From: Myxococcota bacterium
Lineage (GTDB): Bacteria; Myxococcota_C; UBA6777
DNA: 36,160 bases
Assembly: GCA_023150835.1 (NCBI GenBank)
Contig: JAKLKB010000092.1
Location: 1 to 36,160 of the forward strand
Direction: 5' to 3'
In this document: positions 8,539-34,003 of the stretch, piece after piece
How the letters are laid out: the number at the start of each line of letters is the position of its first letter
Numbering within the stretch: position 1 is the first letter of the stretch
Made by a program: the position numbers and the translations under genes
The notes under the pieces: generated by a model
The model's input: the letters and a program-made list of their open reading frames with translations, nothing else
Database searches by the model: none
What the model was told of the DNA's origin: nothing

Positions 8539-8582
8539 GTAGACGCCCGATTGTTGGGCCCCACAGGGGGCTGCCTCTACAT
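8539..8582. repeat. GTAG-type REP-like palindrome (family A)
   Basis: GTAGACGCCCGATTGTTGGGCCCCACAGGGGGCTGCCTCTACAT resembles the reverse complement of 25504-25548. Confidence 0.65.
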
Positions 8583-8657
8583 TTTTACGATCACGCAACG
8601 GGCGGATTTCGTATCACGCGGTTTGATGCGGTAGGGTTCCACCCCATCGCGCAGATC

Positions 8658-13130: not shown

Positions 13131-13262
13131 GAAACTGAGACACACCCTTCTCTCCGTTAGGTCTTTGAGGTAACGTGCGGCTGTTCTTTGCGTACACGCA
13201 AACCAACACCACAAAACACCCAACACAACACCACGAGACCCCCCCAAAAAAGGAGAAAACCA

Positions 13263-14948
13263 ATGCGTGTGTGGCTCAAACGATTCGGATGGCCGCTGGC
13301 CCTCTGCACAGCGTTTTTGTACATCAGCCTCGCTTACCAAACGTCCTGCACTCCCGAGTCGGTCGGCACAACTTGCAAACAAGACTCCGACTGCACCTCT
13401 CCCCAAGTCTGCTTGCTTGGCACCTGTCAAGCCCGTCCCGACGGCGGTAGCGGCACCGAAACCTCCAACACCGAAACCCCAAATACCGAAACCTCCCAAG
13501 AGATCAACCCTTCCGAACCTGCCGCCGAAACCTCCCAAGAGATCAACCCTTCCGAACCTGCCGCCGAAACCTCCCAAGAGATCGACCCTTCCGAACCTGC
13601 CGCCGAAACTTCCCAAGAGATCGACCCTTCCGAACCTACCCAAGAACCCGCTCCCACCGAAACCTCCACCGAGACCACCCCCTCCGAAGTCGTCCCTGAG
13701 GCCGGAACAGAAACCACCCCCGAACCTACCCCCGAAACCACACCCGAAACCACACCGACTTGCCCCCAAACATGCACAACCAACGCGCAATGCAACCTCA
13801 ACGCTTGCGGAAGCAACCGTTACTGCATCGGAGGCCGTTGCGCCGCCCAAGTCTGCCCCGCCACTTGCGTACTCAACGAGCAATGCAACGTCGCTGCCTG
13901 TGGAACCCGTACCTACTGCAACAACAACACTTGCCAAGCTCCACCCACTCAATGCCCCCAACGTTGCGGCGATACCAACGATTGCAATATCGCCGCCTGT
14001 GGAACCCGTACCCTCTGCCAAAACGGCACTTGCCAAAACCCGCCCGCGCAATGCCCCATCTTGTGCGGAAACGACGACCGTTGCGACTTGATCCCCTCTT
14101 GCACAACACGCACCTATTGTAGCCCACAGCGCCAATGCACCACCGAACCCGCACAATGCCCCGGAAACTGCATCGCCAGCGTCAACTGCCTCGCCAAAGC
14201 CTGCGGTACCCGTACTTCATGCGTCAACGGCCAATGTATCGACCGCTCCACCCAATGCCCGAGCGACGGAAATTGCCGGAGCAACGCCGATTGCGCAGTC
14301 AGCGGATGCGGAACGCGTACCCAATGCGTCAACAACGACTGTCGTACTCCCCAATGCCCCAACACCTGCACCAGCGACGCCAACTGCCCCGCCAATGCTT
14401 GTGGAACCCGCACAAAATGCACCAACGGCACTTGCCAAACTCCACCGCCCCCCTGCACCCGCGACCGTGAATGCCCACAAGGCTTCATCTGTGAAAACAG
14501 TCTCTGCACCGCAGGTTGCCGTGGAAACTCCGACTGCCCCACCAACGCCCCGATCTGCTATAAAAACCCATCCACCGCTGCCATCGGCGTTTGCAGTCCC
14601 CAATGCCCCACCCGCTGCACCAGCAACGCCAACTGTGCAGCCCCTGCTTGCGCCAAAAACACCGTCTGCGGTCCCAACGGCACCTGTCAACCCCCGCCCT
14701 CTTGCGCACGCGACCGCGACTGCCAAGTCGGTTTCATCTGCGAAAACAGCGTCTGCACCGCAGGATGCCGCAGCGTTGCAGATTGCGGAACCAACCAAAC
14801 CTGCACCATCCCAAGCGGTTCCACTGTCGGCCAATGCACCAATACCACCCCCCCCCAATGCCCCACCCGCTGCGCAAACGACGCCGAATGCAACATCCCC
14901 GCCTGCGGTAATCGCAACAACTGCCGCGCTGGTTTCTGTTCCTTCTAA
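13263..14948 (+). CDS. Exported Cys-rich repeat protein (probable lipoprotein)
   Basis: AGGAG RBS, a signal ending YQTSC, a 4-Cys module, a Glu/Thr/Pro linker with 39-bp repeats (ETSQEINPSEPAA x4), nine 6-Cys repeats and two 8-Cys modules. Confidence 0.88.
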   Translation: MRVWLKRFGWPLALCTAFLYISLAYQTSCTPESVGTTCKQDSDCTSPQVCLLGTCQARPDGGSGTETSNTETPNTETSQEINPSEPAAETSQEINPSEPAAETSQEIDPSEPAAETSQEIDPSEPTQEPAPTETSTETTPSEVVPEAGTETTPEPTPETTPETTPTCPQTCTTNAQCNLNACGSNRYCIGGRCAAQVCPATCVLNEQCNVAACGTRTYCNNNTCQAPPTQCPQRCGDTNDCNIAACGTRTLCQNGTCQNPPAQCPILCGNDDRCDLIPSCTTRTYCSPQRQCTTEPAQCPGNCIASVNCLAKACGTRTSCVNGQCIDRSTQCPSDGNCRSNADCAVSGCGTRTQCVNNDCRTPQCPNTCTSDANCPANACGTRTKCTNGTCQTPPPPCTRDRECPQGFICENSLCTAGCRGNSDCPTNAPICYKNPSTAAIGVCSPQCPTRCTSNANCAAPACAKNTVCGPNGTCQPPPSCARDRDCQVGFICENSVCTAGCRSVADCGTNQTCTIPSGSTVGQCTNTTPPQCPTRCANDAECNIPACGNRNNCRAGFCSF

Positions 14949-20223: not shown

Positions 20224-23200
20224 ATGCGTGAACAACGGCCCAACGGGCTTCGATGGATGGTAGGGTTGTGTGGGCTGTTGATGGGCTGGCCGACGGCGTG
20301 TGGGGGCGAACAGGCCGAATGCAAGGACGGGATCCAAGTCAGCGAGTACAACACCAGCGGCCTCAAGTGTACAAAGCCTTGTGATTGCAGCAACCTCAAG
20401 TTTGAAGGCTACTGCATCAGCGGCACTTGTGTTTCCAATCCCCGCAATCCTGCCCAACGCAAGGGCGAGATCCGCTCCTGCAAGCTCTTGCAAAAAGTCG
20501 GAACCTGTGCGTGGGGACAACAAGAAGCCCAACCTGCCCCGCTCACGGAGCTTGTGTGGGGCGACTGCAAAGCCGAACAAGTCGGCCCGAACTTTCCCGA
20601 AGACACCAAAGAACGCTGTTTGGATGGCGTCGACAATGATTGCGACGGTCTAACCGATCTCGATGACTCCAAATGCAACGCCTATTGTGTGCCCAAACAA
20701 ACCACGGCCTGCTACACCGCAGACCCCAAGACCCTCCACGTCGGCCCTTGTCGACCGGGCCTTAAGACCTGCAAAGAAGACAATACGTGGGGTCCATGCG
20801 TTGGCGAGAAAGTCCCCGGCAAAGAGTTCTGCAACAACCAAGACGACGACTGCAACGGCCTGATCGACGACGGATTGGACGGATGCACCGCTCAATCCTG
20901 CCAAAATGACGAGCAGCGTGGTTGTTATCCCGAAGTGGTGGGCTGTGTACTCGAAACCATCGCTCAAGATATCGTGCGTTTTCGCTGTCAAGGCGCTTGC
21001 ATCGCGGGGATTCAGACTTGCCGCAACGGTTCGTGGGGGGCATGCGAAAAAAAGGTCGGACCCACCGCCGAGATCTGCGATGGGATCGACAACAACTGCG
21101 ATGGTGCGGTCGATGAAGGCTGCTTGTGCGAAGCAGGCAAACAGCAAGCCTGTTCTCTCGGCCCACAAAACAAAGCGGTCGGCGAGTGTGTCCTCGGAAA
21201 GCAGACGTGCGTCGGTGGAAAGTGGGGGGCATGTGAAGGCGCAAAAGCTCCAAGCATCGAGTATTGCAACAAACAAGACGACGATTGCGACGGTCAGATC
21301 GACAACCATTGCGTCTGCACGCAAGACAAAGATTGCGAACAGGGCTTGCTTTGCTTGTTGGGTTCTTGCCGCAAAAGGATCTGCCCGAGTGGACAGAGCG
21401 ATTGTGGCGAGACCTGCGCCGATCTCAACAGCAGTAGCGCGCATTGTGGGGCTTGCAACAATGCTTGCACAGAGGGGCGTGAATGCGTCAAAGGGGCTTG
21501 TCAATGCCCGAAGGGAGGGATGTTTTGCGAAGGGGCGTGTGTGGACGCACAGACTTCTGCGGCGCACTGTGGGGCTTGCGGGAAAGCCTGCGCTTCGCCG
21601 CGTACGTGCGAGCAAGGGATCTGTGTTTGCCCTGCGGCACAGAGCTTTTGTGGGGAAGGCTGCATAGCCACGAACACCTCGAACCAACATTGCGGAGCGT
21701 GCAACAATGCTTGCCTTGGGCCAAAGACGTGTGTAGGAGGCAAGTGTACTTGCCCAAGCGGGCAAGACGATTGTGGAAGCGGATGTATCGAACTGATCGA
21801 GAATACGCATTGCGGAGCGTGCAACAACGCCTGCCAAAACGGCCAAACCTGCCAAAACAGGCAATGTACTTGCCCAAGCGGAAAAACGGCGTGCGGAGGC
21901 GTGTGCATCGACACACAGACTTCTGCGGCGCACTGTGGGGCTTGTGGAAAGGCTTGTGGTGTCGGGCTTGTGTGCAAGGCAGGCCAATGCGAACAACCGC
22001 TGCTCCTCGCGGCAGGCAGCCGATATGCTTGTGCGGTGACGGATTGTAATGCCTTGACGTGTTGGGGCGCAAACGACAAGGGTCAGCTCGGCATCGCGGT
22101 ATCATGCCTTGCCTGCCCTCCAACCCCCGTGGCGCTGCCCTCTGGGCTGCGTCTCATTCAGGTGGCCGCAGGAGACGCTTTCACCTGCGCGCTTTTTTCC
22201 GATGGTAGCGTTCGCTGCTGGGGAGAGAACAGCTCCGGCCAACTCGGTTATGGTGACACCACAAACCACGCAACGCCTAAGGCCAACGCGATCAACTTGG
22301 GAGCGGGCCGCAGCGCCAAATCCATCGCAACGGGTTCATCCCATACCTGCGCGATCTTGGACGACGACAGCGTCAAATGTTGGGGAAACAACCAACGCGG
22401 ACAACTCGGAGAAGGCAACACCTCCCAACGCAATGCCCCTCCTGCCACCGCGATCAACTTGGGAGCGGGCCGCAGCGCCAAGTCCATTACAGCGGGCTTT
22501 CGACACACCTGCGCGATATTAGACGACAACAGCGTCAAGTGCTGGGGCGCCAACGATTTCGGGGCACTCGGCTACGGCGACACCACCCAACGCAACGCCC
22601 CCGATACCAACGTGATCAACTTGGGGACAGGTCGCAGCGCCAAGTCCATCGCAGTAGGTTATAGCCATACTTGCGCGATATTAGACGACAACAGCGTTAA
22701 GTGCTGGGGATACAACATCGACGGGCGACTCGGCTACGGCGATACCACAGACCGCAAAGCCCCCGACACCACCGTGATCAACTTGGGAACGGGCCGCAGC
22801 GCAAAGTCCATCCATGCGGGCTCATGGCACACTTGTGTGCTGCTGGACGATAACAGCGTCAAGTGTTGGGGAGCCAACTCCTTCGGGCAACTCGGCTACG
22901 GCGACACCACAAACCGCAAAGCCCCCGACGCCAACGCCGTAAATCTCGGAGCAGGCCGAACCGCCAAGGCTATCGTTGCTGGAGGGGCTTTTATATGCGC
23001 ACACCTCGATGATGGAACTCTCCGATGTTGGGGAGACAACGATATGGCACAAGTCGAGTACACCACACGGGTATATGCAACCCAACCAAGCACGCTGCCT
23101 TTGGTGCTTGGACAGATCCGCTGCGGGGGGACTTGTGCCGATGCCTTTGTGACAAGCCGTTGTGGGGCCTGTCAAACCGCCTGTCAAATCAACCAGATCT

Positions 23201-24348
23201 GCGCCAATGGCCGCTGTGTCTGGAGATATCAACAAGTCGCAGCGGGAAGTTCTCACACCTGCACGCTGTTTTCCGATGGTAGCGCTCGCTGCTGGGGAGG
23301 GAACTCGTCGGGCCAACTCGGTTATGGCGACACCACAAACCGCGCAACGCCTGATACGAAGGCGATCATCTTGGGGACAGGACGCAGCGCAAAGTCCATC
23401 ACTACGGGCTTTCATACGTGCGCACTCTTAGACAACAACAGCGTCAAATGTTGGGGAGATAACAATAACGGCCAACTCGGCTACGGCGACACCACAGACC
23501 GAAACGCTCCCGACGCGAACGCCATCAACTTGGGAACAGGCCGCAGCGCAAAGTCCACCGCTGTAGGTATAAATCACACGTGCGCGCTGTTGGACAACAG
23601 CAGCGTCAAGTGTTGGGGAGCCAACTCCTTCGGGCAACTCGGCTACGGCGACATCACAGACCGCAACGCCCCCGACACCAACGCCGTAAATCTCGGAGTA
23701 GGCCGCAGCGCAAAGTCCGTCGCTGCGGGGTCCCAGCATAGCTGCGCGATCTTAGACAACGACACCATCAAGTGCTGGGGAGCTAACTCCTTCGGGCAAC
23801 TCGGCTACGGCGACGCCACAAACCGCAACGCCCCAGACGCGAACGTGATCAACTTGGGAGCAGGCCGCAGCGCGAAATCTATCGCGGCTGGCGCGTACCA
23901 TTCCTGCGCTGTCTTGGACAACAACACCGTCAAGTGCTGGGGGTACAACAACAACGGTCGGCTCGGTTACGGCGACACCACAAACCGAAACGCTCCCGAC
24001 GCGAACGCGATCAGCTTGGGAGCAGGCCGCAGCGCAAAGTCCATCTTCGTAGGTACTGCCCATACATGCGCGATCTTGGACGACAGCAGTGTTAAATGCT
24101 GGGGAGACAACACCAAAGGCCAACTCGGCTACGGCGACACCACAAACCGCAACGCCCCAGGCGTGAACGCGATCAACTTGGGGACGGGCCGCAGCGCGAA
24201 GTCCCTCACAGCGGGTTCTAGCCATACCTGCGCGATCTTGGACGACGACAGCGTCAAATGTTGGGGAGGCGGCGATAGCAGCCAACTCGGATACGGCGAC
24301 AAAACAAGCCGCAACGCCCCAAGTATCGACGCACTTCGTTATCCTTGA
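20224..24348 (+). CDS. Large Cys-rich lipoprotein with DNDCDG metal-binding repeats, HCGAC repeats and two 7-bladed RCC1/BLIP-II propellers
   Basis: GGAGG RBS, a signal ending PTAC, four D.xDN/DDCDG motifs, five HCGACxxAC modules and 14 repeats of G..HTCA.LDDNSVKCWG.N..GQLGYGD. Confidence 0.9.
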   Translation: MREQRPNGLRWMVGLCGLLMGWPTACGGEQAECKDGIQVSEYNTSGLKCTKPCDCSNLKFEGYCISGTCVSNPRNPAQRKGEIRSCKLLQKVGTCAWGQQEAQPAPLTELVWGDCKAEQVGPNFPEDTKERCLDGVDNDCDGLTDLDDSKCNAYCVPKQTTACYTADPKTLHVGPCRPGLKTCKEDNTWGPCVGEKVPGKEFCNNQDDDCNGLIDDGLDGCTAQSCQNDEQRGCYPEVVGCVLETIAQDIVRFRCQGACIAGIQTCRNGSWGACEKKVGPTAEICDGIDNNCDGAVDEGCLCEAGKQQACSLGPQNKAVGECVLGKQTCVGGKWGACEGAKAPSIEYCNKQDDDCDGQIDNHCVCTQDKDCEQGLLCLLGSCRKRICPSGQSDCGETCADLNSSSAHCGACNNACTEGRECVKGACQCPKGGMFCEGACVDAQTSAAHCGACGKACASPRTCEQGICVCPAAQSFCGEGCIATNTSNQHCGACNNACLGPKTCVGGKCTCPSGQDDCGSGCIELIENTHCGACNNACQNGQTCQNRQCTCPSGKTACGGVCIDTQTSAAHCGACGKACGVGLVCKAGQCEQPLLLAAGSRYACAVTDCNALTCWGANDKGQLGIAVSCLACPPTPVALPSGLRLIQVAAGDAFTCALFSDGSVRCWGENSSGQLGYGDTTNHATPKANAINLGAGRSAKSIATGSSHTCAILDDDSVKCWGNNQRGQLGEGNTSQRNAPPATAINLGAGRSAKSITAGFRHTCAILDDNSVKCWGANDFGALGYGDTTQRNAPDTNVINLGTGRSAKSIAVGYSHTCAILDDNSVKCWGYNIDGRLGYGDTTDRKAPDTTVINLGTGRSAKSIHAGSWHTCVLLDDNSVKCWGANSFGQLGYGDTTNRKAPDANAVNLGAGRTAKAIVAGGAFICAHLDDGTLRCWGDNDMAQVEYTTRVYATQPSTLPLVLGQIRCGGTCADAFVTSRCGACQTACQINQICANGRCVWRYQQVAAGSSHTCTLFSDGSARCWGGNSSGQLGYGDTTNRATPDTKAIILGTGRSAKSITTGFHTCALLDNNSVKCWGDNNNGQLGYGDTTDRNAPDANAINLGTGRSAKSTAVGINHTCALLDNSSVKCWGANSFGQLGYGDITDRNAPDTNAVNLGVGRSAKSVAAGSQHSCAILDNDTIKCWGANSFGQLGYGDATNRNAPDANVINLGAGRSAKSIAAGAYHSCAVLDNNTVKCWGYNNNGRLGYGDTTNRNAPDANAISLGAGRSAKSIFVGTAHTCAILDDSSVKCWGDNTKGQLGYGDTTNRNAPGVNAINLGTGRSAKSLTAGSSHTCAILDDDSVKCWGGGDSSQLGYGDKTSRNAPSIDALRYP

Positions 24349-24406: not shown

Positions 24407-25450
24407 TTAGGACCGGGGGGAAGAGGAAGAGAGGCGCTTGGCGAGGGGGATCAGTAGAAGGGCAAGCAAGAGCAGCAAGACGGAGATCAGTTGGCCCCAT
24501 GTGAAGATATCGGGGCCTTCGGCAGATCGGACGAAGTCGACTTCAAAGAGGAAGCCGCGCACGATATCGCCGCGAAAGATCTCGATAAAAAACCGCACAA
24601 AGGCATAAAGGATCAGATAAGCGATCACGACTTGGCCGTGAAAGCGTTTGTTGTGGCGAATCCACAGCAAGACGAAAAAGATGGCGAGTGTTGCGAGCGC
24701 TTCGTAAAGCTGCGTGGGGTGGATGTGTCCCTTGAGTCCGACACTTGCGGGAAACGACACAGCCCACGGAAGATCCGTCGCTTTGCCATAACAGCACCCC
24801 GCCGAAAAACAGCCGATTCGCCCGAAGAATTGGCCCAAAGCCACCACAGGAACGACCGTATCCGCAAGCAAAAAGAAGCCGAGCTTTTGACTGCGAACAA
24901 ACAGAGCCGTTGCGATCAAACCGCCGATCAATCCGCCATGAAAGACCAAGCCACCTTCCCAGATACGAAACAGCTTGGCGTTGTAAAAGGGCGTGGTGGC
25001 CTTGAGGTTCGGCCAATACGTCGTATTCCACTCGGTGATGATAAACAGAACACGCGAACCCACCATCGAAGCGATCAACACCCAAAAAGCAAGGTCAAGG
25101 ACTTGATCGGGCGCAACGCCCACACGACGGCCCTCTCGGATCGTCAGCGCGATGCCAAAGATAAACCCCAGCGAGATCATCACACCATACGTATGCAGCT
25201 TGATCTCGCCCAGATACACGAGGCCCACAAGCGCCAACCCCGCCCCAAAGATCAAACTCGTGGTGGTGGTGATCCAGCCCGCTGTTCGGCGCTCTGTCGC
25301 ACGCTCAGGATCCGTGGCCCACAGATAGGCCACAAACGAGATCCCAAACAACACCGCCATCAGCTTCCATTGGGCAAACAGCCACGAACCCGGGCCAGCA
25401 AATCCCGACCAAGACGACGGCACTTTCCACTCAATTAAGATCTGGTACAT
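24407..25450 (-). CDS. lgt: Prolipoprotein diacylglyceryl transferase (canonical copy)
   Basis: LHTYG, WEGGLVFHGG, FGRIGCF.AGCCYG, HPTQLYE and RFFIEIFRGD are all intact. Start at MYQIL. Confidence 0.93.
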   Translation of the reverse strand: MYQILIEWKVPSSWSGFAGPGSWLFAQWKLMAVLFGISFVAYLWATDPERATERRTAGWITTTTSLIFGAGLALVGLVYLGEIKLHTYGVMISLGFIFGIALTIREGRRVGVAPDQVLDLAFWVLIASMVGSRVLFIITEWNTTYWPNLKATTPFYNAKLFRIWEGGLVFHGGLIGGLIATALFVRSQKLGFFLLADTVVPVVALGQFFGRIGCFSAGCCYGKATDLPWAVSFPASVGLKGHIHPTQLYEALATLAIFFVLLWIRHNKRFHGQVVIAYLILYAFVRFFIEIFRGDIVRGFLFEVDFVRSAEGPDIFTWGQLISVLLLLLALLLIPLAKRLSSSSPRS

Positions 25451-25503
25451 CGAAGCTCTTTCTTTTGGACCGATACGAAATCCGCCCCTTGTGTAAACGG
25501 AAG

Positions 25504-25548
25504 ATGTAGGGGCAGCCACAGGGGGCTGCCCAACAACAGGGCGTCTAC
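25504..25548. repeat. GTAG-type REP-like palindrome (family A)
   Basis: ATGTAGGGGCAGCCACAGGGGGCTGCCCAACAACAGGGCGTCTAC, lying between the two lgt genes. Confidence 0.65.
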
Positions 25549-25646
25549 AGCGGATCGCACCGACCCTTCAAGCACACTTTTCTCGGAGATCGTATGACAC
25601 CGTAAAAACAAAGGCGCAAAAGGCGCGGAGATTCGGGATGGAGGGC

Positions 25647-26702
25647 TTATTTCGCGCCTTCTTGGTTTTGGCGGGTGACAAACACCGCCAAGGCCAACAC
25701 AAAGAACACAGCCGCAGCAAGCTGGCTCCATGACAACAGATCCGCTCCTTGGGCAAGGGGCGTGATATCGCGCTGGAACGAAGCGATCAGACCGCGCCGT
25801 TCGTCGCCACGGAACATATCAAGGAAGAACGAAACCACGGGATAGATCAACAGATACCACACGAAGACTTGGCCGTGATAGCGCTTGGCACTGCGCACCC
25901 ACAGCAACACAAAGAACAAGGCCAAGACAGCGAGCGACTCGTACAGTTGCGTGGGATGCAAGCCAACCCCCGCAGGAAGCTCAGCAGGCAACAGCGGATG
26001 CCCGGGAAAAGAGACCTTCCATGCGGCGTTTGTGACTTTTCCAAAACCAAACCCCGCTGCAAAAGAACCCAACAGACCGAAGAATTGGCCAAGCGCCACC
26101 GAAGGGATGATGATATCCGCCATCTTCCAAAAGTCCACTTTGGAAAGTTTTGCAAAGGCAAGGCTAACCAAAAGAGCCGCCAGAAGGCCACCATAGAACA
26201 ACAAACCACCTTCCCACAGACGAAAGATCTTCCACTGATACCACACGGTTTGCGTACGGAAGTCCGAAGCAAATTCAGGCCAATGGATCGCAACAAAGAA
26301 CAGACGCGCCCCAATCATCGCCGCAAGCAACAACCAAAACGCTAGATCGAGGATACGTTCGGGATCTTCGCCGACACGACGGGCCTCACGCACCGCCAAG
26401 ATGATCCCCAACAAAAAGCCGATCGCCACCAACACCCCATAAGTATGCAGCTTAATGAAGTTGAGCCGCCCTGTCCCGATACCGCCCAAGATCGCCGCAA
26501 ATACCAACGCTGCAACGGTTCCCATCCATCCCAACGCACGACGGCCTCCCTTGGCCTCAGGAGCCAAGCCCCACCACGCCACGATGCCGCTCACCACAAG
26601 ACCCACAATCCACAACGAAAGCTTTTGGGCCATCCACTTGTCTGGCCCCCAGATCTTGAAAAAACTTGCGGGTAGTCGGTAATCCAACAAGATCGGATGC
26701 AT
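25647..26702 (-). CDS. lgt: Lgt paralogue with substituted catalytic residues
   Basis: MHPILL, LHTYG, WEGGLLFYGG, FGLLGSFAAGFGFG, HPTQLYE and SFFLDMFRGD. AGGAG RBS. Confidence 0.9.
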   Translation of the reverse strand: MHPILLDYRLPASFFKIWGPDKWMAQKLSLWIVGLVVSGIVAWWGLAPEAKGGRRALGWMGTVAALVFAAILGGIGTGRLNFIKLHTYGVLVAIGFLLGIILAVREARRVGEDPERILDLAFWLLLAAMIGARLFFVAIHWPEFASDFRTQTVWYQWKIFRLWEGGLLFYGGLLAALLVSLAFAKLSKVDFWKMADIIIPSVALGQFFGLLGSFAAGFGFGKVTNAAWKVSFPGHPLLPAELPAGVGLHPTQLYESLAVLALFFVLLWVRSAKRYHGQVFVWYLLIYPVVSFFLDMFRGDERRGLIASFQRDITPLAQGADLLSWSQLAAAVFFVLALAVFVTRQNQEGAK

Positions 26703-26815
26703 CTACACTCTCCTGTTCTGTTCTTGCTTCTACGTTCCTATCTATCCGTGTCCAAACAAAAGGACAAAACACACAAACCATCTTTTCATCTTGCCGGCTC
26801 GTCGGGTTGGTTTTT

Positions 26816-26864
26816 GCGGGGCGCTGCCCCACTCCCCGCAAGGGAACTTCGTCCCCTTGACCCC
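26816..26864 (+). repeat. Double-hairpin REP-like element (family B)
   Basis: GCGGGGCGCTGCCCCACTCCCCGCAAGGGAACTTCGTCCCCTTGACCCC. Confidence 0.8.
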
Positions 26865-27013
26865 GTGTCGGCGGGGTGATCAAGGGTGCTTCAAACCAAC
26901 CACTCTGCCGCTTGATCAGGCACCAACTCGGGGTTTTTCAACGAACCGCTGCTGTTTGCACACCAGCCAACCACAAAGAGAATCCTGATCAGGGATGTTT
27001 CTTCGAGGCCGTC

Positions 27014-27745
27014 TCAAGGGCCTTTTGGAGGTTCTTGTGCGGGCTGGGATGATCCACCCCACAACGTATGCAGCGCGAAAAAAAACACACCAAAGGAGAT
27101 CGCGATATCCGCGATGTTGAAAGTCGGCCAATGCGAAGTCCCTTGCGCGGTGGTCCAGTAGATGTCGATAAAATCGATCACATGGTTCACACGCAAACGA
27201 TCTGTAAAATTGCCCACCGCACCGCTCGCGATCCCCGCGATGCCCAAGATCAACAAGGTCTCTTCGTCGCGTGCGCGGCGCAACATCGTGGTCAAAAACA
27301 CAAACGCCAACAACGTGATCAGCACAAACAATCCACGCCGCACCAACACAGGCAAGCCGCCAAACACACCCCACGCCGAACCCGGATTGAGTGCATAGCG
27401 AAAGTTCAACAAGCCCGGGAGCACCACACACGCAGGCGAGGCGATATCCGCCACGATCAACACATCGCGACACCACGAAGACTTTTTTAACGCCTCGACC
27501 TGTTTCTTCCACACATCAAGGCTCAGGCGCGCTCGATCAAAACACTTGTCACCTGCTTCGACACAAGAACGCTCACAAGCGCTTTTCTGTTCCTTTTGCT
27601 GACAAAGCCCCCAACACACCTGCCGCTCCATCAAACACGCCGCTTGCGGAGAATGAAGGTGCGTGGTCGCCCAGTGCTTGCTGCCCTGATCCAACCCCAC
27701 CACCACCAAAACCACCCACAACACAACCCAGTAGCGACGCGGCAT
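27014..27745 (-). CDS. lspA: Signal peptidase II with 8-Cys insertion
   Basis: LDQGSK, NPGSAWG, GAVGNFTDR, VIDFI and WPTFNIAD motifs. Confidence 0.92.
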   Translation of the reverse strand: MPRRYWVVLWVVLVVVGLDQGSKHWATTHLHSPQAACLMERQVCWGLCQQKEQKSACERSCVEAGDKCFDRARLSLDVWKKQVEALKKSSWCRDVLIVADIASPACVVLPGLLNFRYALNPGSAWGVFGGLPVLVRRGLFVLITLLAFVFLTTMLRRARDEETLLILGIAGIASGAVGNFTDRLRVNHVIDFIDIYWTTAQGTSHWPTFNIADIAISFGVFFFALHTLWGGSSQPAQEPPKGP

Positions 27746-27757
27746 ATCGTTCTCGCC

Positions 27758-28885
27758 TTATTTCAAAATGTCCGAATCACCCGCTTTTTCCACACGTTCC
27801 GATAATGACGGAGCTTCGATCATCTCACTTTGTTCGGTGATGGTCGATGCTTCGGGCGGATCTGTTGTGGCCGATGCTTCAGACAAGCTCGTTGTGGCCG
27901 ATGCTTCGGGCGGATTTGTTGTGGCCGATGCTTCAGACAAGCTCGTTGTGGCCGATGCTTCGGTCGTTGTGGCCGATGCTTCGGTCGTTATCGCGGATGT
28001 TTCGGTCGTTATCGCGGATGCTTCGGTCGTTGTGGCCGATGCTTCGGTCGTTGTGGCCGATGCTTCGGTCGTTGTGGCCGATACTTTGGGTGTTGGGATG
28101 TGCTGATGGCGAAGGGGAGAGGCGGATGGAGGTTGTTCGATGTAATCGTCTCGATCGGCGTATTCTTCATCAAAAGAAGAGCGAAGGACTTCGATGGCGA
28201 TCAGGACGACACCGACAGAGATGGCGACGTCAGCGACGTTAAAGGTCGGCCAAGAGTGAGAACGCCCTCCGATGTGGACAAACCAGTAGATAAAGTCCAC
28301 AACGTAATCCATCCGCAAGCGATCCAAGAAGTTGCCCAGAGCGCCGCCCAAGATCAACGAAAGCGCCCAAACCATCTGCCGATGCTCCGTTTCGACTCGA
28401 AAAGAGAACAAGTAGACGATAAACAAGATCGCAAGGATGGTGATCGTGATAAAGAAAGGACGGCGAAACTCAGGCGGGTAATCGGAAAACAAGCCCCATG
28501 CAGCGCCGCTGTTGGTTTGGTAACGGAAGTGAAAAAAGCCCGGGACGACGATACACTCGGCGTTGCTGCCGCTCCAAGGCTGGGATACGCTGCGGCAGAT
28601 CCCCGATTGCTTCATTGAATCAAGGTCATAATTCCATCGGCTTATCAAGCGATTCTGCTCTTTTTGGCAATCTTGTTCCAAAAGATTGCAGCGCTTCATG
28701 CAAGAGACCAAACTGCCTTGGTTCCGGGCTAATCCCTCACGACAGCGATCTTCACAAGTGCGGCGCTTGTCATAACAATGGTTTCCGGGGTGGCGGAGAT
28801 ACTGCACCGCCATCAACTTGCTCCACTGATCCAACCCGATCACAGACAAACCAATCGCCAAAAGGATGATGTATTTCTTGCTCAT
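27758..28885 (-). CDS. lspA: Signal peptidase II with 8-Cys insertion and Thr/Ser/Ala/Glu repeat tail
   Basis: LDQWSK, NSGAAWG, GALGNFLDR, VVDFI and WPTFNVAD motifs, with 21-bp SATTTEA repeats at about 27843-28083. Start at MSKKY. Confidence 0.92.
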   Translation of the reverse strand: MSKKYIILLAIGLSVIGLDQWSKLMAVQYLRHPGNHCYDKRRTCEDRCREGLARNQGSLVSCMKRCNLLEQDCQKEQNRLISRWNYDLDSMKQSGICRSVSQPWSGSNAECIVVPGFFHFRYQTNSGAAWGLFSDYPPEFRRPFFITITILAILFIVYLFSFRVETEHRQMVWALSLILGGALGNFLDRLRMDYVVDFIYWFVHIGGRSHSWPTFNVADVAISVGVVLIAIEVLRSSFDEEYADRDDYIEQPPSASPLRHQHIPTPKVSATTTEASATTTEASATTTEASAITTETSAITTEASATTTEASATTSLSEASATTNPPEASATTSLSEASATTDPPEASTITEQSEMIEAPSLSERVEKAGDSDILK

Positions 28886-29068
28886 GCTTTGCTCAAATGT
28901 TCCGTCAGACGGGGGATTTCCAAGGGTAGCCCCCCCCGACGACGCCAACGCTTCCTCAAAAGAACGGTCAACATATACCTGTCGCCCCTTGCTTGTCAAC
29001 CACAACACCGAAGTTCCCGCATGCTCAAGCAAGCCAACAACGCTCACTCCACAGCCCCGAGGCCACCG

Positions 29069-30130: not shown

Positions 30131-31747
30131 TCAAGGCAAGAACATCATCCGACAGATCCAAACAGCAGCCATAATCCCCGCAACATCGGCCATCAGACAA
30201 GCGATCAGCGTGTGTCGGACTTGCTTGATCTGCACCGCGCCAAAGTACACGGCCAAGACGTAAAAGGTGGTTTCGGTACTGCCCTGAAACGTCGCCACCA
30301 TCATGCCGATCAAAGAATCGGGGCCATGCGCGTTCATCGTTTCCGCCATCACACCAAACGCCCCAGACCCCGACAATGGACGCAAAAGAGCCATCGGCAA
30401 AGCTTCCGCAGGCATCCCGATCCATACCGTGATAGGCCGCAACACGCCCACCAACAGATCCAACGCCCCAGACGCACGAAACATCCCGATCGCCACCAAG
30501 ATCGCCACCAAAAACGGGATGATCCGAATCGCCGCATCAAACCCTTCTTTGGCTCCTTGCACCAAGCAATCGTACACCTTGATCCCACGGCTTATCCCGT
30601 ACCACACCAACAACGCGATCAAGATCGGCAACATCCAAAATGACAACAGGTCTTTGCTCAAACCAAACCAAGAGATATCGAGATCACCCCATAACCCCCA
30701 CCCAGACGCCGATTGCAGCGCGTGAGCCAAGATCCACAACGTCGCTTCCATCGCTTCGCCCAAGACGTGACCCACCGCAGCCCCCAACAATGCCAACCAA
30801 AACCCCCACTGCATCGCCCTCATCCACAGCGAGGATTGCGTTAACGTCCCTGAGGCCGCCACCTCCGCCTCCAACGCTTTTAATTCTTGGTGCGCTGTTT
30901 CGGTTCGTGCGCTTTCCGAAGAAGCTGTATCCGCTTCCGAAGAAGCTGTATCCGCTTCCGAAGAAGCTGTATCCGCTTCCGAAGAAGCTGTATCCGCTTC
31001 CGAAGAAGCTGTATCCGCTTCCGAAGAAGCTGTATCTGCTTCCGAAGGAGCGGCAGACGTTGTTTCCGAAGAAGCTGTTTCGGCTTTGGGGCTGGCTGTT
31101 TCGGCTGGTTTGGAGATAGGGATATCGACTTCGTCTTGGGTTTTGTCGATGGGATGGAGAGAAAGGCTGTAGCGCGGGAGCCGAGAGAGCCACACACAAG
31201 CGAAGATCGCGACGGTTGTCGAGCAGATCGTCGCAAACAAGGTGGTGAACAAGATCGCCGAAGGTTGGGCGGATCCCATCGCGGTGCGGATGGCGATCAC
31301 GCCCGTCGGTAGGATCGAAACGCCCGACGTATTGATCGCGAGAAACAACGCCATCCCGTTGGTGGCTACCCCACGCCGCAGGTTCAAGCGTTCGAGTTCC
31401 ATCATCGCCTTGATCCCAAAAGGCGTCGCAGCATTCGCCAAACCGAGCATATTGGACGAGATATTCATGATCATCGCACTCATCGCGGGATGATCCGCAG
31501 GAACATCGGGAAACAGCCGCGTCATCAACGGACGGATCCCACGCGCCAAAGATTGCAACAGCCCTGCTTCTCGGGCGATCTGCATCATCCCCAACCAAAA
31601 GGCCATCACTCCGACCAACCCCAACGCCAACGTCACCGCAGACTTTGCCGCCTCTGCGGATTGTCGCGCCACCGCATCCATCCGCCCCGTCCATGCGCCC
31701 ACCAAGATCGACGCCAACACCAAGATCACCCAGATCGCGTTGAGCAT
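30131..31747 (-). CDS. Fused SpmA/SpmB-type (nucleoside recognition 'Gate' domain) membrane protein
   Basis: MLNAIW, PLMTRLFPDVP..HPA, NMLGLANAATPFGIKAM, RPLSGSG and GSTETTFYVLAVYFG. The linker has six 21-bp EADTASS repeats (30914-31046). Confidence 0.9.
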   Translation of the reverse strand: MLNAIWVILVLASILVGAWTGRMDAVARQSAEAAKSAVTLALGLVGVMAFWLGMMQIAREAGLLQSLARGIRPLMTRLFPDVPADHPAMSAMIMNISSNMLGLANAATPFGIKAMMELERLNLRRGVATNGMALFLAINTSGVSILPTGVIAIRTAMGSAQPSAILFTTLFATICSTTVAIFACVWLSRLPRYSLSLHPIDKTQDEVDIPISKPAETASPKAETASSETTSAAPSEADTASSEADTASSEADTASSEADTASSEADTASSEADTASSESARTETAHQELKALEAEVAASGTLTQSSLWMRAMQWGFWLALLGAAVGHVLGEAMEATLWILAHALQSASGWGLWGDLDISWFGLSKDLLSFWMLPILIALLVWYGISRGIKVYDCLVQGAKEGFDAAIRIIPFLVAILVAIGMFRASGALDLLVGVLRPITVWIGMPAEALPMALLRPLSGSGAFGVMAETMNAHGPDSLIGMMVATFQGSTETTFYVLAVYFGAVQIKQVRHTLIACLMADVAGIMAAVWICRMMFLP

Positions 31748-31904
31748 CCTCGCTCCTTTTTCCCGTCTGCTGTGCTTTTGACTTCTTTTGCCTGACAAGA
31801 CCGCCGCACCAAGATTCCCCGCTCTTGCCCTTCGCCACCACCCTATCCATAATCCCGACCGCCGCTCCAACGCAAAAAACCGACCACCCCAAGGAGCCCG
31901 ACGC

Positions 31905-32717
31905 ATGGGATATGCAAACGGAAAAGTTGTCTTGATCACAGGAGCATCCGCAGGGATAGGCTCTGCTCTTGCGCTCGAATTTGCAAAACAAGGCGCTGAT
32001 CTCGTTCTCACCGCCCGTCGCACCGATCGCCTACAAGAACTTGCCACACAGATCCAAACCCTCGGTCGAAAGGCTCTCCCCATCGCCTGCGACGTCACCC
32101 AAGATCACGACATCGAACAAGCCGCCCACCAAGCACGCGAAACCTTCGGACGCATCGATATCGTCGTCGCCAACGCAGGTTTCGGTGTGGCAGGCACGTT
32201 TGAAAAACTTTCGATGGAGGATTATCGCCGACAGTTCGAGACCAACATCTTTGGCGTGATGCGCACACTCAAAGCGACACTGCCCGATCTCAAGCAATCG
32301 AAAGGCTGTTTTGCGATCATTGGGAGCGTCAACAGCCACATCTCTTTGCCGGGAAACTCGGCCTATGGGATGAGCAAGTTTGCGGTTCATGCCTTTGCAC
32401 AGTCCATGCGCGGCGAACTACGGCCCTTTGGGATCGGTGTCACCCTGATCTCCCCGGGATTTGTAGCCTCCGAGATCCGCCGCGTCAACAACTACGGAGC
32501 CTTCAAACCCGAAGCCAAAGAACCTGTCCCGACTTGGCTGATTATGCCTACCGAGACCGCCGCCCGTCAGATCGCCAAAGCCATCCACAAACGCCGACGC
32601 GAAGCCGTCATCACAGGGCATGGCAAGCTGCTTGTCTTCTTACAACGCCATGTCCCCGGACTGGTGTCCTTTTTCGTCAACCGCTTCGCTGTCAAAGCCC
32701 GCCCCGAACCCCGTTAA
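31905..32717 (+). CDS. Short-chain dehydrogenase/reductase
   Basis: TGASAGIG, ANAG and YGMSK motifs, with an AAGGAG RBS. Confidence 0.93.
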   Translation: MGYANGKVVLITGASAGIGSALALEFAKQGADLVLTARRTDRLQELATQIQTLGRKALPIACDVTQDHDIEQAAHQARETFGRIDIVVANAGFGVAGTFEKLSMEDYRRQFETNIFGVMRTLKATLPDLKQSKGCFAIIGSVNSHISLPGNSAYGMSKFAVHAFAQSMRGELRPFGIGVTLISPGFVASEIRRVNNYGAFKPEAKEPVPTWLIMPTETAARQIAKAIHKRRREAVITGHGKLLVFLQRHVPGLVSFFVNRFAVKARPEPR

Positions 32718-33020: not shown

Positions 33021-33674
33021 TTAACGGCCTTGGACGATGGCGCGGACTTGGAGTTTTAAGGAGACATAAGAGCGCGGAGGCAGGGACACTTGGGAGGACA
33101 ACAGTTGTTCGCGCACGCATAGGCCAAGGGTTTTGCCGTAGGTCGACAACATGACGGTTTCTTCGGCGTCTTGGAAACGTCCGTCTGGCCCGACTCCGAT
33201 CGCCAAACGAAAACGCACCGTAGTTTCTCCCACAGGGAATTCATCCCTTGAGATATCGCAAGTGTGGAAGGACTCGATCAGCCCGTTCATCTCCTTTTGG
33301 AGATAGTGCATCTCGTCGGGTGTACCGTTGCCTGAAAGTTCCTCGACCACAAGACGCTGCAACGTGACGGATGCAGCGGGTTTGGGAGCAGGCTGGGGTT
33401 CGGTCGTGGGCGCAGGTTCGGTCGTGGGTGGATTTGTCTGAGAAGGATCCGTGTGAGGTGTGGGTTCGGTTGTGGGCGCGGGTTCGATCGTGGGCGCGGG
33501 TTCGGTGGATGGGGGGGGCTTGGTTGGATTGGTGCAGCGGCCATAGACACAAGCGGGGCCTTGCTTTCCGTAGACATCGCGTGTCACTTCCGTCCCCCAA
33601 GGGAGAACAATGCACCCTTGGAGCAGGGTCGCTACAAAAAGAACGGGGCCCATGGTTTGTCCAAAACGCTTCAT
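33021..33674 (-). CDS. Lipoprotein with Pro/Thr linker and C-terminal AgmX/PglI-C (TonB-C-like) domain
   Basis: GGAG RBS before MKRF, a lipobox LQGC, TEPAPT repeats and a C-terminal helix-Cys...GETTVRF..GPDGR...LGLCV pattern. The domain call is tentative. Confidence 0.7.
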   Translation of the reverse strand: MKRFGQTMGPVLFVATLLQGCIVLPWGTEVTRDVYGKQGPACVYGRCTNPTKPPPSTEPAPTIEPAPTTEPTPHTDPSQTNPPTTEPAPTTEPQPAPKPAASVTLQRLVVEELSGNGTPDEMHYLQKEMNGLIESFHTCDISRDEFPVGETTVRFRLAIGVGPDGRFQDAEETVMLSTYGKTLGLCVREQLLSSQVSLPPRSYVSLKLQVRAIVQGR

Positions 33675-34003
33675 TTTTTTCTCCATAACGGCCATCGCAA
33701 GGGCCATTTGCGCCAATCAACGCAGAGGATTCGGCCATTGGCCGCCTGTAGACGACCCGCACACCACGCTGCGCCTAGCAACGGCGGTGCCACCACGCTC
33801 CACCAAGCAGAGTCCCGCAGATCCCAAGGGCGACGACCCTCGCAAAGAGCCTGTGTAGGCAACGAGCAAAACAAGATCGGAGTAATCACGCGCAGCGTTT
33901 GGAGCAAGTGTGCTCCACAAGAAAAAACAAAAAAAGCCGTGTTCGCGTCCGAGCGCGACAGAGACGTCGATTTGAAAAACCTGCGATCTCTTCGCCGATA
34001 TCG

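Follow-up and report, generated by a model that had tools for sequence, protein, structure and literature searches.

In Myxococcus xanthus, lspA1 and lspA2 stand in tandem in one operon with lgt, as summarised in a review (PMC8689077). In E. coli, the Lgt substitutions R143A and R239A are described as abolishing function (mBio 2026, PMC13251419, and its preprint), and a passage of the same paper points out a subgroup of Lgt homologues without R143 and R239, including some from Myxococcales, for which another acyl donor or mechanism is suggested; this subgroup may or may not be the clade described below. The locus presented here, from an uncultured myxobacterium-like source, combines a tandem lspA pair with two Lgt paralogues, one of which has no arginine at either position.

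The four genes and the lspA-lgt operon in Myxococcota

The stretch of DNA analysed, here called the window, is 36,160 nt long and contains four consecutive intact ORFs, all on the minus strand, in the order lspA1-lspA2-lgt*-lgtB. The first two, lspA1 (27758..28885) and lspA2 (27014..27745), encode signal peptidases II of 375 aa and 243 aa (Peptidase_A8 2.9e-37 and 7.4e-31; TIGR00077 97.9 and 78.1 bits). They are followed by lgt* (25647..26702), encoding an Lgt-fold paralogue of 351 aa that is a candidate pseudoenzyme (Pfam LGT 7e-54; TIGR00544 134.5 bits), and by lgtB (24407..25450), encoding a prolipoprotein diacylglyceryl transferase of 347 aa with the Cys/Cys motif variant (LGT 1.4e-64; TIGR00544 151.3 bits). 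All four proteins are above the NCBIfam equivalog cut-offs (118.9 for TIGR00544 and 73.95 for TIGR00077), and the two LspA and two Lgt genes that an earlier note on this DNA had reported are therefore real. The copies of each pair are also clearly diverged, as it had said, with identities of 36% between LspA1 and LspA2 and 44% between Lgt* and LgtB. Comparison with orthologues places the start of LgtB at the ATG at 25450 rather than at 25519. The start of lspA2 is 12 nt past the stop of lspA1, and the neighbours of the cluster are housekeeping genes (S1, HolC and an EpmA-like gene).

That note had proposed a search of relatives for the four-gene order, which is present in both congeners (G001 and G002); three genomes from the family's two other genera share the three-gene order LspA(insertion)-Lgt*-LgtB, the insertion-bearing LspA being a single copy in the operon there. 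Among 80 loci fetched by LspA alignment, an Lgt ORF adjoins lspA in 61, and two LspA ORFs are followed by Lgt in 18, including loci from M. xanthus (L041), Archangium (L028), Corallococcus (L040), Sorangium (L034, L036 and L037) and Polyangium (L050). R143 and R239 are kept in all 63 of the lspA-adjacent Lgt ORFs that cover both columns; 62 of these, from other genomes, are of the Cys/Cys type seen in LgtB and one is of the Asn/Glu type. The doubling is thus mostly an ordinary and common arrangement in Myxococcota, and the linkage of lspA to a Cys/Cys lgt is the ancestral housekeeping arrangement.

LgtB retains Y26, H103, G104, G142, R143, G145, G154, Y235, R239, E243 and R246, and its N146C and E151C are the known natural Cys/Cys variant. 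On these residues LgtB is presumed to be the catalytic Lgt of the operon, which would transfer diacylglycerol from phosphatidylglycerol onto the lipobox cysteine. Two further Lgt-family genes are present in the genome, one of Asn/Glu type on contig C201 and one of Cys/Val type on contig C131, and for this reason the role of LgtB as the main transferase is only presumed.

Transcription of the operon would start at a conserved promoter that precedes lspA1. The candidate is a σ70-like TTGACA-18-TATGTT (28970..28999, minus strand) some 85 nt before the ATG of lspA1, with a consensus score of 10/12, such sites being no commoner in the region than chance. It lies within a block of about 55 nt that is nearly identical among the three genomes of the genus, despite saturation of the synonymous sites of the adjoining genes (dS 1.6–2.3 between G000, the genome studied here, and G002). 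Conservation therefore acts on the DNA level, which would mean that the longer frame from the GTG at 29047 is probably untranslated.

The intergenic regions further downstream contain dispersed repeats. lspA2 and lgt* are 311 nt apart, and most of this interval is occupied by a high-copy repeat (26802..26937; by blastn against the genome, 520 matches at E<=1e-5, spread over 181 of the 239 contigs). The 196 nt that separate lgt* from lgtB contain a second high-copy repeat, with a 22-nt palindromic core (25471..25600; 603 matches at E<=1e-5, spread over 183 of the 239 contigs). In RNA libraries from two studies, contigs map to lgtB, lgt* and lspA1, with DNA carry-over possible, and those of one study also cover lspA2 and bridge its junction with lspA1. 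This coverage is weak evidence for expression of the cluster. No RNA-library contig spans lspA2 to lgt*; loose ends occur at 26853, inside the repeat, and at the second repeat the contigs break, depth is raised and loose ends are numerous. Both repeats could carry signals of their own, and the single transcript is putative.

The locus is probably an ancestral lspA-lgt housekeeping operon with lineage-specific additions: Lgt* as an accessory protein, a hairpin inserted in LspA, and LspA2.

Residue losses and constraint in Lgt*

With numbering after E. coli Lgt (5azb), Lgt* differs from that enzyme by R143L, N146S, E151F, R239S and E243D, and the earlier report that one Lgt is without catalytic residues is true of this gene. 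The change of H103 to tyrosine is not an abnormal loss, as tyrosine is present in 92 of 101 relatives of the Lgt subfamily. R143, C146, C151 and R239 are replaced in all 20 members of the Lgt* clade and kept in all 101 relatives. Lgt* is monophyletic (SH-aLRT 100) and nested in the clade of the lineage's LgtB (97), is present in all five relatives, and is represented by about 20 database proteins covering all three genera of the family. Its AF2 model has a mean pLDDT of 93.6, and E. coli Lgt (5azb) is the only PDB structure that it matches significantly (E 1.5e-9).

Purifying selection is seen on every copy in the cluster, with no relaxed selection by dN/dS on any of them, and among the four proteins Lgt* shows the highest conservation in the comparison with G001, with one amino-acid change and 45 synonymous codon changes in 351 codons (dN/dS 0.006). 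Against G002 its dN/dS is 0.09, equal to that of LgtB, and its conservation is at least that of LgtB in all four genome comparisons. The suggestion that the paralogues are specialised is borne out.

Lgt* is apparently a dead, lineage-specific copy of single origin that arose by tandem duplication of the Lgt of this operon, and its ability to transfer lipid has most likely been lost. Both phosphate-binding arginines have disappeared from it together with both motif cysteines, while the fold and the arm and loop motifs are kept under very strong purifying selection. We infer that it may act as a non-catalytic accessory protein that binds prolipoprotein or lipid, together with LgtB and/or LspA.

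It could instead be that Lgt* is active with changed chemistry, using another lipid donor, such as a neutral or ether lipid, or another mechanism, in which case there would be a second kind of lipid anchor. This is what the passage in mBio 2026 (PMC13251419) proposes for its arginine-less homologues, whether or not these are the Lgt* clade, and the very strong purifying selection would be in keeping with it, as would the retention of Y26, G104, D129, G142, G145, G154 and H196 in 20 of 20 clade members. The invariant F151 and the near-invariant S239 (S or A in the clade) could be adaptive, which would count against a dead enzyme. However, position 143 is unconserved, with five different residues in the clade (L in nine, Q in five, Y in four, S in one and H in one), and Y235, E243 and R246 are relaxed (kept in 16, 13 and 12 of 20, against 101 of 101 relatives each). 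Only two columns are fixed in both the clade and its relatives with different residues (C to F and R to S), and no newly conserved polar or charged residue was found in the clade by column comparison with the relatives. An active Lgt* would on this evidence seem unlikely.

The two LspA copies and the eight-cysteine insertion

LspA1 spans the membrane with four TM helices and has D188 and D219 as its catalytic pair; it also has a periplasmic insertion and, on the cytoplasmic side, a tail of low complexity. Its GNFLDR and FNVAD motifs align to those of 5dir and 6ryo, and its AF2 model (mean pLDDT 95) matches 5dir by Foldseek with E 9.5e-10. It is conserved in all five relatives. The tail (aa 246–375; 27761..28150, minus strand), which is cytoplasmic by LspA topology, is made up of Thr/Ala/Ser/Glu-rich tandem repeats in translation, and in orthologues it is variable and of low complexity, with a length of up to about 700 aa in G005. 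The raised dN seen for lspA1 comes from this tail.

LspA2, found only in this genus (g1; G000, G001 and G002), has an intact Asp pair (D182 and D213) and dN/dS values of 0.07 and 0.17. It is sister to the insertion-bearing LspA1 clade, on a long stem (2.0) and with moderate support (SH-aLRT 85) in a tree whose columns included the insertion. The same tree makes the lspA duplications here and in M. xanthus independent. LspA2 is probably a genus-specific, fast-diverged copy that is sub-functionalised in its substrate range. Signal peptides would be cleaved, after lipid transfer, by LspA1 and in this genus also by LspA2.

Both proteins carry the unusual Cys-rich insertion noted earlier, with eight cysteines each at the same site after TM1. 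It has about 75–80 residues, from the TM1 'DQxSK' motif to the '(V/L)PG' strand, a stretch of only about 6 residues in P. aeruginosa LspA. In LspA1 (about aa 31–111; 28553..28795, minus strand) the cysteines are at 37, 44, 48, 62, 66, 73, 97 and 111, and in LspA2 (about aa 31–106; 27428–27655, minus strand) at 37, 44, 48, 57, 61, 68, 92 and 106. Their spacing is mirror-symmetric (C-x6-C-x3-C...C-x3-C-x6-C), such that in LspA1 48+62, 44+66 and 37+73 each give 110, and this pattern is present in all 17 insertion-bearing LspAs. The AF2 model of LspA1 has helices at 37–53 and 59–93 (pLDDT 94–98), forming a helical hairpin that separates TM1 from the beta-cradle. The hairpin would be periplasmic, beside the substrate-clamping beta-cradle, and held by a three-rung ladder of predicted disulfides and a fourth Cys pair. 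No homologues of the insertion outside the LspAs of this clade were found when the 88-aa insert was searched by phmmer against 1.84 billion representatives; the five matches at E<=1e-3 were four LspAs and one spurious repeat protein. The hairpin is therefore lineage-specific, in about 17 proteins.

It had been proposed that the cluster is an undescribed parallel route, with Lgt/pseudo-Lgt and LspA1/LspA2 complexes dedicated to disulfide-rich lipoproteins or atypical lipoboxes, beside a general pathway. The Cys-rich LspA insertion and Lgt* are confined to the same small clade, a separate Asn/Glu-type Lgt is present elsewhere in the genome, and the other genera of the family have two to three ordinary LspAs elsewhere, all of which would suit such a route. 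The window does contain the roughly five lipoprotein-like N-termini reported, by pattern only: VQGC (start 1124), MLRC (start 9950), QTSC (frame 13188–14948), PTAC (start 20224) and LQGC (frame 33021–33716). Three of the five belong to proteins of 8.8–13.7% Cys, with non-canonical residues at -3 to -1. However, chance alone would place a cysteine near the signal peptide in proteins of about 10% Cys, and the atypical-lipobox argument is thus weak. Nor is there a 'general' peptidase left in this genus, since no Peptidase_A8 gene besides LspA1 and LspA2 was found in this genome (93% complete) or in G001 (86% complete), which would mean that these two must serve all lipoproteins and are the housekeeping peptidases. 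With the ancestral linkage and the frequency of lspA-lspA-lgt loci also against it, we regard the parallel route as quite improbable; the lineage-specific Lgt* and LspA hairpin point to a helper role and not to a second pathway.

The extra LspA, the insertion or both might also be a defence against LspA-targeting antibiotics of the myxovirescin or globomycin type from neighbouring bacteria, as with lspA3 and lspA4 in the myxovirescin cluster of M. xanthus. Producers are described in reviews as carrying extra lspA copies (PMC8689077, PMC8048626), and the insertion, by its inferred location, adjoins the periplasmic parts lining the active site. However, both lspA copies are within a housekeeping operon, the window contains no biosynthetic cluster, and the insertion is also found in the single operon copy of other genera. 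This explanation is very improbable.

Comparison with known systems

The closest described arrangement is the lspA1-lspA2-lgt operon of M. xanthus (Xiao & Wall 2014, as given in the review PMC8689077), which shares the tandem lspA followed by a same-strand Cys/Cys lgt. The likeness is seen directly in the M. xanthus locus and in those of Archangium, Corallococcus, Sorangium and Polyangium. It differs from the locus described here, where an arginine-less second Lgt stands between lspA and lgt; in addition, the insertion that the LspAs of Myxococcaceae carry at the site of the eight-Cys hairpin is shorter and free of cysteine.

Lgt* resembles the subgroup of mBio 2026 (PMC13251419) in being an Lgt-family protein without residues essential in E. 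coli. The account there is a one-paragraph remark without context, to which the recent duplicate origin, the monophyly and the fixed place beside lspA and lgt are added here. Lgt* is also under stronger constraint than its presumed active paralogue.

The canonical LspAs of P. aeruginosa (5dir) and S. aureus (6ryo) share the fold with LspA1 (Foldseek E about 1e-9, target TM-score 0.63–0.71) and the same GNxxDR and FNxAD catalytic motifs, but they have neither the insertion of about 80 residues after TM1 nor the long cytoplasmic tail. Small Tim proteins have a twin CX3C motif and CHCH domains a twin CX9C motif; in both, two antiparallel helices are fastened to each other by Cys pairs in mirror symmetry, and the compartment is an oxidising one. 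The phmmer search of the insert found no sequence relationship to these twin-Cys hairpins. The LspA hairpin resembles them in its two antiparallel helices and mirror-symmetric Cys pairs, and differs from them in having three rungs (x6, x3 / x3, x6) rather than two and in being embedded in a membrane protease.

Organization of the lsp-lgt cluster

Four intact ORFs follow one another on the minus strand, in the transcription order lspA1 (28885-27758), lspA2 (27745-27014, 12 nt past lspA1), the Lgt-like gene lgt* (26702-25647), and lgtB (25450-24407). There are two Pfam matches to LGT (1.4e-64 and 7e-54) and two to Peptidase_A8 (7.4e-31 and 2.9e-37), and all four proteins surpass the NCBIfam equivalog cut-offs for lgt or lspA, which agrees with the two LspA and two Lgt paralogues, consecutive and with intact ORFs, described in the earlier note. 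That note placed the start of lgtB at GTG 25519, which was rejected because the orthologues begin at a Met corresponding to 25450. All four genes are present in the same order in both congeners, G001 and G002, and the synteny is therefore conserved.

The cluster has a convergent 1400-aa RCC1/Cys-rich gene on one side and a divergent EpmA-like gene on the other. The surrounding genes are housekeeping or signalling genes, and no biosynthetic cluster was found among the neighbours of the lsp-lgt genes. The envelope enzymes Lgt and LspA are essential and are targeted by antibiotics, and an LspA copy or insertion might be supposed to confer antibiotic resistance; this role has no support in the genomic context and is highly improbable.

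Three secreted or lipoprotein-like proteins of 8.8-13.7% Cys are also encoded in the window (20224-24348, plus strand; 13188-14948, plus strand; 8658-9950, minus strand). The largest, of approximately 1374 aa, has MopE-like and Stig1-like Cys repeats and two blocks of RCC1 repeats. Across the whole genome, a count of lipoprotein-like N-termini in raw ORFs yielded 783 candidates, among which no clear lipobox consensus emerged; with no gene caller, it was too noisy to be relied on.

Upstream of lspA1 there is a block of approximately 55 nt, containing TTGACA-18-TATGTT, that is nearly identical in the three genomes of the genus (the source genome G000, G001, and G002) despite saturated synonymous sites, which is consistent with a conserved promoter. 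A longer LspA1 beginning at GTG 29047, for which the upstream peptide 'LWLT..QVYVDRSF' had looked conserved, was rejected because the conservation of the block is that of its nucleotide sequence and falls on promoter-like hexamers. Scanning the cluster for terminators and promoters gave counts not above those of shuffled sequence, conservation supporting the lspA1 promoter only.

Both of the long spacers in the cluster hold one copy each (25471-25600 and 26802-26937) of a dispersed repeat of approximately 80-135 nt with a 22-nt palindromic core, which is also present at 8539-8615 and in about 180 of the 239 contigs (603 and 520 blastn matches at E<=1e-5). Contigs from RNA libraries, which break at the repeat copies in the lsp-lgt spacers, cover lgtB, lgt*, and lspA1 in two studies, while in one study lspA2 is covered as well and the junction between lspA1 and lspA2 is bridged. 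This is weak support for expression of the cluster, because DNA carry-over is uncontrolled, and the contig depths are unsuited to ranking the genes. No contigs cover lspA2 in runs X17 and X18 and no run joins lspA2 to lgt*, but gaps in contig cover prove nothing. A contig of run X8 ends with adapter at 26703, exactly 1 nt ahead of the lgt* start codon; a contig from another run reads through this position, and the fragment end is a faint hint at most.

Replacement of the Lgt motif in Lgt*

Both Lgt copies score above the cut-offs for the family, LgtB with 218.1 bits to PF01790 (cut-off 24.9) and 151.3 bits to TIGR00544 (cut-off 118.9), and Lgt* with 183.1 and 134.5 bits, respectively. They were aligned to E. 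coli Lgt (5azb, in which the chain numbering is that of E. coli plus one). According to a recent study (mBio 2026, PMC13251419), Lgt has a 13-residue motif (Y26 H103 G104 G142 R143 G145 N146 E151 G154 Y235 R239 E243 R246), in which Y, W, or F can stand in for H103, and in which distant Lgts have C at 146 and C or D at 151; function is abolished by R143A and by R239A. In LgtB the motif reads Y-H-G-G-R-G-C-C-G-Y-R-E-R, the documented Cys/Cys variant, and since this is within the permitted variation, LgtB is, as judged by its motif, a complete enzyme of a known type. In Lgt* it reads Y-Y-G-G-L-G-S-F-G-Y-S-D-R. Because R143, N/C146, E/C151, and R239 are all replaced, Lgt* is regarded as an Lgt-fold paralogue and not as an Lgt enzyme.

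Among 121 aligned homologues, R143, C146, C151, and R239 are present in all 101 sequences outside the Lgt* clade, whereas none of them is found in the 20 members of that clade, nor in the Lgt* of any of the five relatives. The earlier observation that one Lgt lacks catalytic residues therefore holds, as R143L and R239S, and extends to four motif positions in every member of the clade. Position 143 is variable (nine L, five Q, four Y, one S, and one H), 239 is S in 18 and A in two, and 151 is always F, with Y235, E243, and R246 likewise relaxed. There are just two columns in which each group has a different conserved residue, and comparison of the columns with those of the other homologues revealed no new conserved polar residue in the Lgt* clade.

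The AF2 model of Lgt* has a mean pLDDT of 93.6, and its sole significant match in the PDB is 5azb (E 1.5e-9, TM-score on target 0.66). In the model, an N-terminal hairpin (strands 4-9 and 82-86) holds two additional helices (28-45 and 53-78) between its two strands, in Lgt* and LgtB alike, a feature common to many Myxococcota-type Lgts.

Between G000 and G001, lgt* has 45 synonymous codon differences and a single amino-acid change among 351 codons (NG86 dN/dS 0.006), and lspA2 has 32 and seven, respectively (0.067), while the value of 0.28 for lspA1 is due to its repeat tail. Against G002 the values are 0.092 for lgt*, 0.091 for lgtB, 0.128 for lspA1, and 0.172 for lspA2, with dS saturated at 1.6-2.3. 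Selection on every copy is purifying, with no sign of relaxation in the extra copies. In all four genome comparisons Lgt* is conserved at least as well as LgtB.

Lgt* is monophyletic in a tree of 59 Lgt rows (20 sequences, SH-aLRT 100), nested in a clade (97) with the lineage's own LgtB orthologues, which indicates that a single tandem duplication was followed by a single loss of the catalytic residues. With the catalytic residues lost, the other motif positions relaxed, position 143 variable, and the constraint nonetheless strong, Lgt* is probably a pseudoenzyme that has retained a role in binding or scaffolding; the lost residues are those which, in E. coli, place the phosphate of phosphatidylglycerol and gate the active site. 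An Lgt* that is active with a new chemistry would fit this pattern less well than a pseudoenzyme, and is rather unlikely.

The Cys-rich insertion in LspA1 and LspA2

LspA1 and LspA2 score 97.9 and 78.1 bits, respectively, to TIGR00077 (cut-off 73.95). Their cores align to the LspAs of P. aeruginosa and S. aureus and keep GNxxDR and FNxAD, the motifs that carry the catalytic Asp pair. This pair is present as D188/D219 in LspA1 and D182/D213 in LspA2, in columns that are invariant among 18 aligned LspAs. When the N-x-G-A-A motif was tested, LspA2 was found to read NPGSAWG instead of NxGAAWG.

Each of the two proteins has, as had been reported from the sequence, a Cys-rich insertion, here of approximately 75-80 residues with eight Cys, between the 'DQxSK' of TM1 and the first strand of the beta-cradle, where the solved LspAs of P. 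aeruginosa and S. aureus have about six residues. In the AF2 model of LspA1 residues 1-245 (mean pLDDT 95) the insertion forms two antiparallel helices (37-53 and 59-93), and the rest matches 5dir and 6ryo with E of approximately 1e-9. Mirror symmetry is seen in the spacing of the first six Cys (C-x6-C-x3-C ... C-x3-C-x6-C), with paired positions that sum to 110 in LspA1 (48+62, 44+66, and 37+73) and to 105 for all three pairs in LspA2. The same pattern was computed in 13 of 13 relatives with eight Cys, and was read by eye in four more with 9-10 Cys, the extra Cys being ignored. From this symmetry, we infer a periplasmic disulfide ladder of three rungs, with the last two Cys as a fourth pair.

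A word-indexed search found 16 proteins that cover the insertion (E <= 3.4e-60), the next matches being at 1.4e-34 with coverage of about 50%. Five matches at E <= 1e-3 were found by phmmer for the 88-residue insert among 1.84 billion representatives, four of them LspAs of a small clade and one an unrelated repeat protein. By these searches, the insertion is restricted to this small clade. At the corresponding site, the Myxococcaceae LspAs (206 aa) have a shorter insertion that is free of Cys, and those of the Polyangiaceae have none.

LspA2 (three rows) groups as the sister of the LspA1 clade that bears the insertion, with a support of 85 and a long stem, in a tree whose alignment kept the insertion columns, which favours this grouping. 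The tandem pairs of the Myxococcaceae and of the Polyangiaceae arose separately.

The tail of LspA1 consists of repeats rich in Thr, Ala, Ser, and Glu and is variable among the orthologues, reaching about 700 aa in G005. Long, low-complexity cytoplasmic tails of tandem repeats are seen in membrane proteins of the lineage (27761-28150 and 30131-32098, both on the minus strand, and the retrieved locus L021:6833-9814), with 'EASATTT' repeated in LspA1 and 'EADTASS' in the adjacent nucleoside-transporter-like gene.

Comparison with other lspA-lgt operons

The phylum-level group is represented in the genome collection by one family, with five genomes of at least 85% completeness, including G000, and G002 at 64%. 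Orthologues carry NCBI labels of Myxococcales, Myxococcota, or Deltaproteobacteria MAGs. The order LspA(insertion)-Lgt*-LgtB is found in the two other genera of the family (G003, G004, G005), with two to three ordinary LspAs elsewhere in the genome. No further Peptidase_A8 gene was found in G000 or G001.

G000 has four Lgt-family genes. Besides lgt* and lgtB, there is an Asn/Glu-type Lgt with an E. coli-like motif and a long Lys/Pro/Ala-rich tail on contig C201 (108388-109197), and a divergent Cys/Val-type Lgt on contig C131 (43983-44987), which resembles the second Lgt, of Cys/Asp type, in M. xanthus, Archangium, and Corallococcus; the two further genes were retrieved as loci L002 and L004. 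In each of these three there are two Lgt genes, one of the Cys/Cys type beside lspA and one of the Cys/Asp type elsewhere, and Sorangium has four.

Among 80 loci retrieved by LspA alignment, an Lgt ORF adjoins lspA in 61, and in 18, including those of M. xanthus, Archangium, Corallococcus, Sorangium, and Polyangium, two LspA ORFs are followed by Lgt. R143 and R239 are kept in 63/63 adjacent Lgt ORFs that cover both columns, and neither an arginine-less Lgt nor a Cys-rich LspA insertion was found in any of the 80 loci. A review (PMC8689077) places the tandem lspA1 and lspA2 of M. xanthus in a single operon together with lgt, and regards them as presumed housekeeping genes. In two unclassified MAGs (L031:5406-7408 and L053:5922-7761) there is a tandem lgt-lgt beside lspA, with R143, C146, C151, and R239 in both copies; the operon lgt has therefore been duplicated elsewhere without loss of the motif.

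The LspA1/LspA2/(Lgt*)/LgtB layout fits the Myxococcota-type lspA(-lspA)-lgt operon, on the same strand and with a Cys/Cys-type lgt. The cluster is thus probably the lineage's housekeeping lspA-lgt operon with three lineage-specific additions, rather than a duplicate pathway. The parallel maturation pathway proposed in the earlier note is not borne out, given the ordinary nature of lspA-lspA-lgt in those 18 loci and the absence of another LspA from G000 and G001. A route dedicated to Cys-rich lipoproteins, as also proposed there, is hard to reconcile with these LspAs being the sole ones of the genus, and is improbable.

In the case of a Polyangiaceae MAG (L074:4677-6614, plus strand), a single frame encodes an LspA (56-265), an Ala/Pro/Gly-rich linker, and a complete Cys/Cys-type Lgt (347-637). 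Either a natural fusion of LspA and Lgt or an artefact of assembly or frameshift may account for this; if the fusion is real, it favours close cooperation of LspA and Lgt. A tentative and rather unlikely further reading makes Lgt* a non-catalytic subunit dedicated to a lipoprotein 'maturase' assembly: a former Lgt that would still capture the prolipoprotein signal peptide and pass it between LgtB and the stalk-bearing LspA, whose stalk would dock or hold Cys-rich mature domains. Prediction of a complex of Lgt*, LgtB, and LspA1 (residues 1-245), with a separate alignment for each chain, gave a score of 0.00 in two runs that had no control folds, a result that speaks neither for nor against binding.

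The lspA-lspA-lgt arrangement is already known, as is Lgt paralogy with degenerate motifs (MSMEG_5408). Lgt homologues without R143 and R239 in the Myxococcales are mentioned in PMC13251419, and the arginine-less subgroup in its Fig. S8 may be the Lgt* clade. A limited literature search found no account of a Cys-rich LspA insertion or of an Lgt pseudoenzyme. As far as these searches show, an operon-embedded, highly constrained dead Lgt of single origin and an LspA stalk with a disulfide ladder are apparently undescribed. Their impact is limited by the small, uncultured clade, the known basic arrangement, and the arginine-less Lgts already in the literature. A dead Lgt fixed in the lspA-lgt operon and conserved at least as well as its active sister would suggest that the Lgt fold can serve without catalysis, possibly in substrate capture, hand-over, or regulation, and the predicted disulfide-stapled stalk would be a new decoration on the substrate entry side of LspA. 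To our knowledge, Lgt and LspA are thought to act alone, in steps regarded as single-enzyme reactions, and an Lgt* that served in a maturase would be the first accessory protein described for them.
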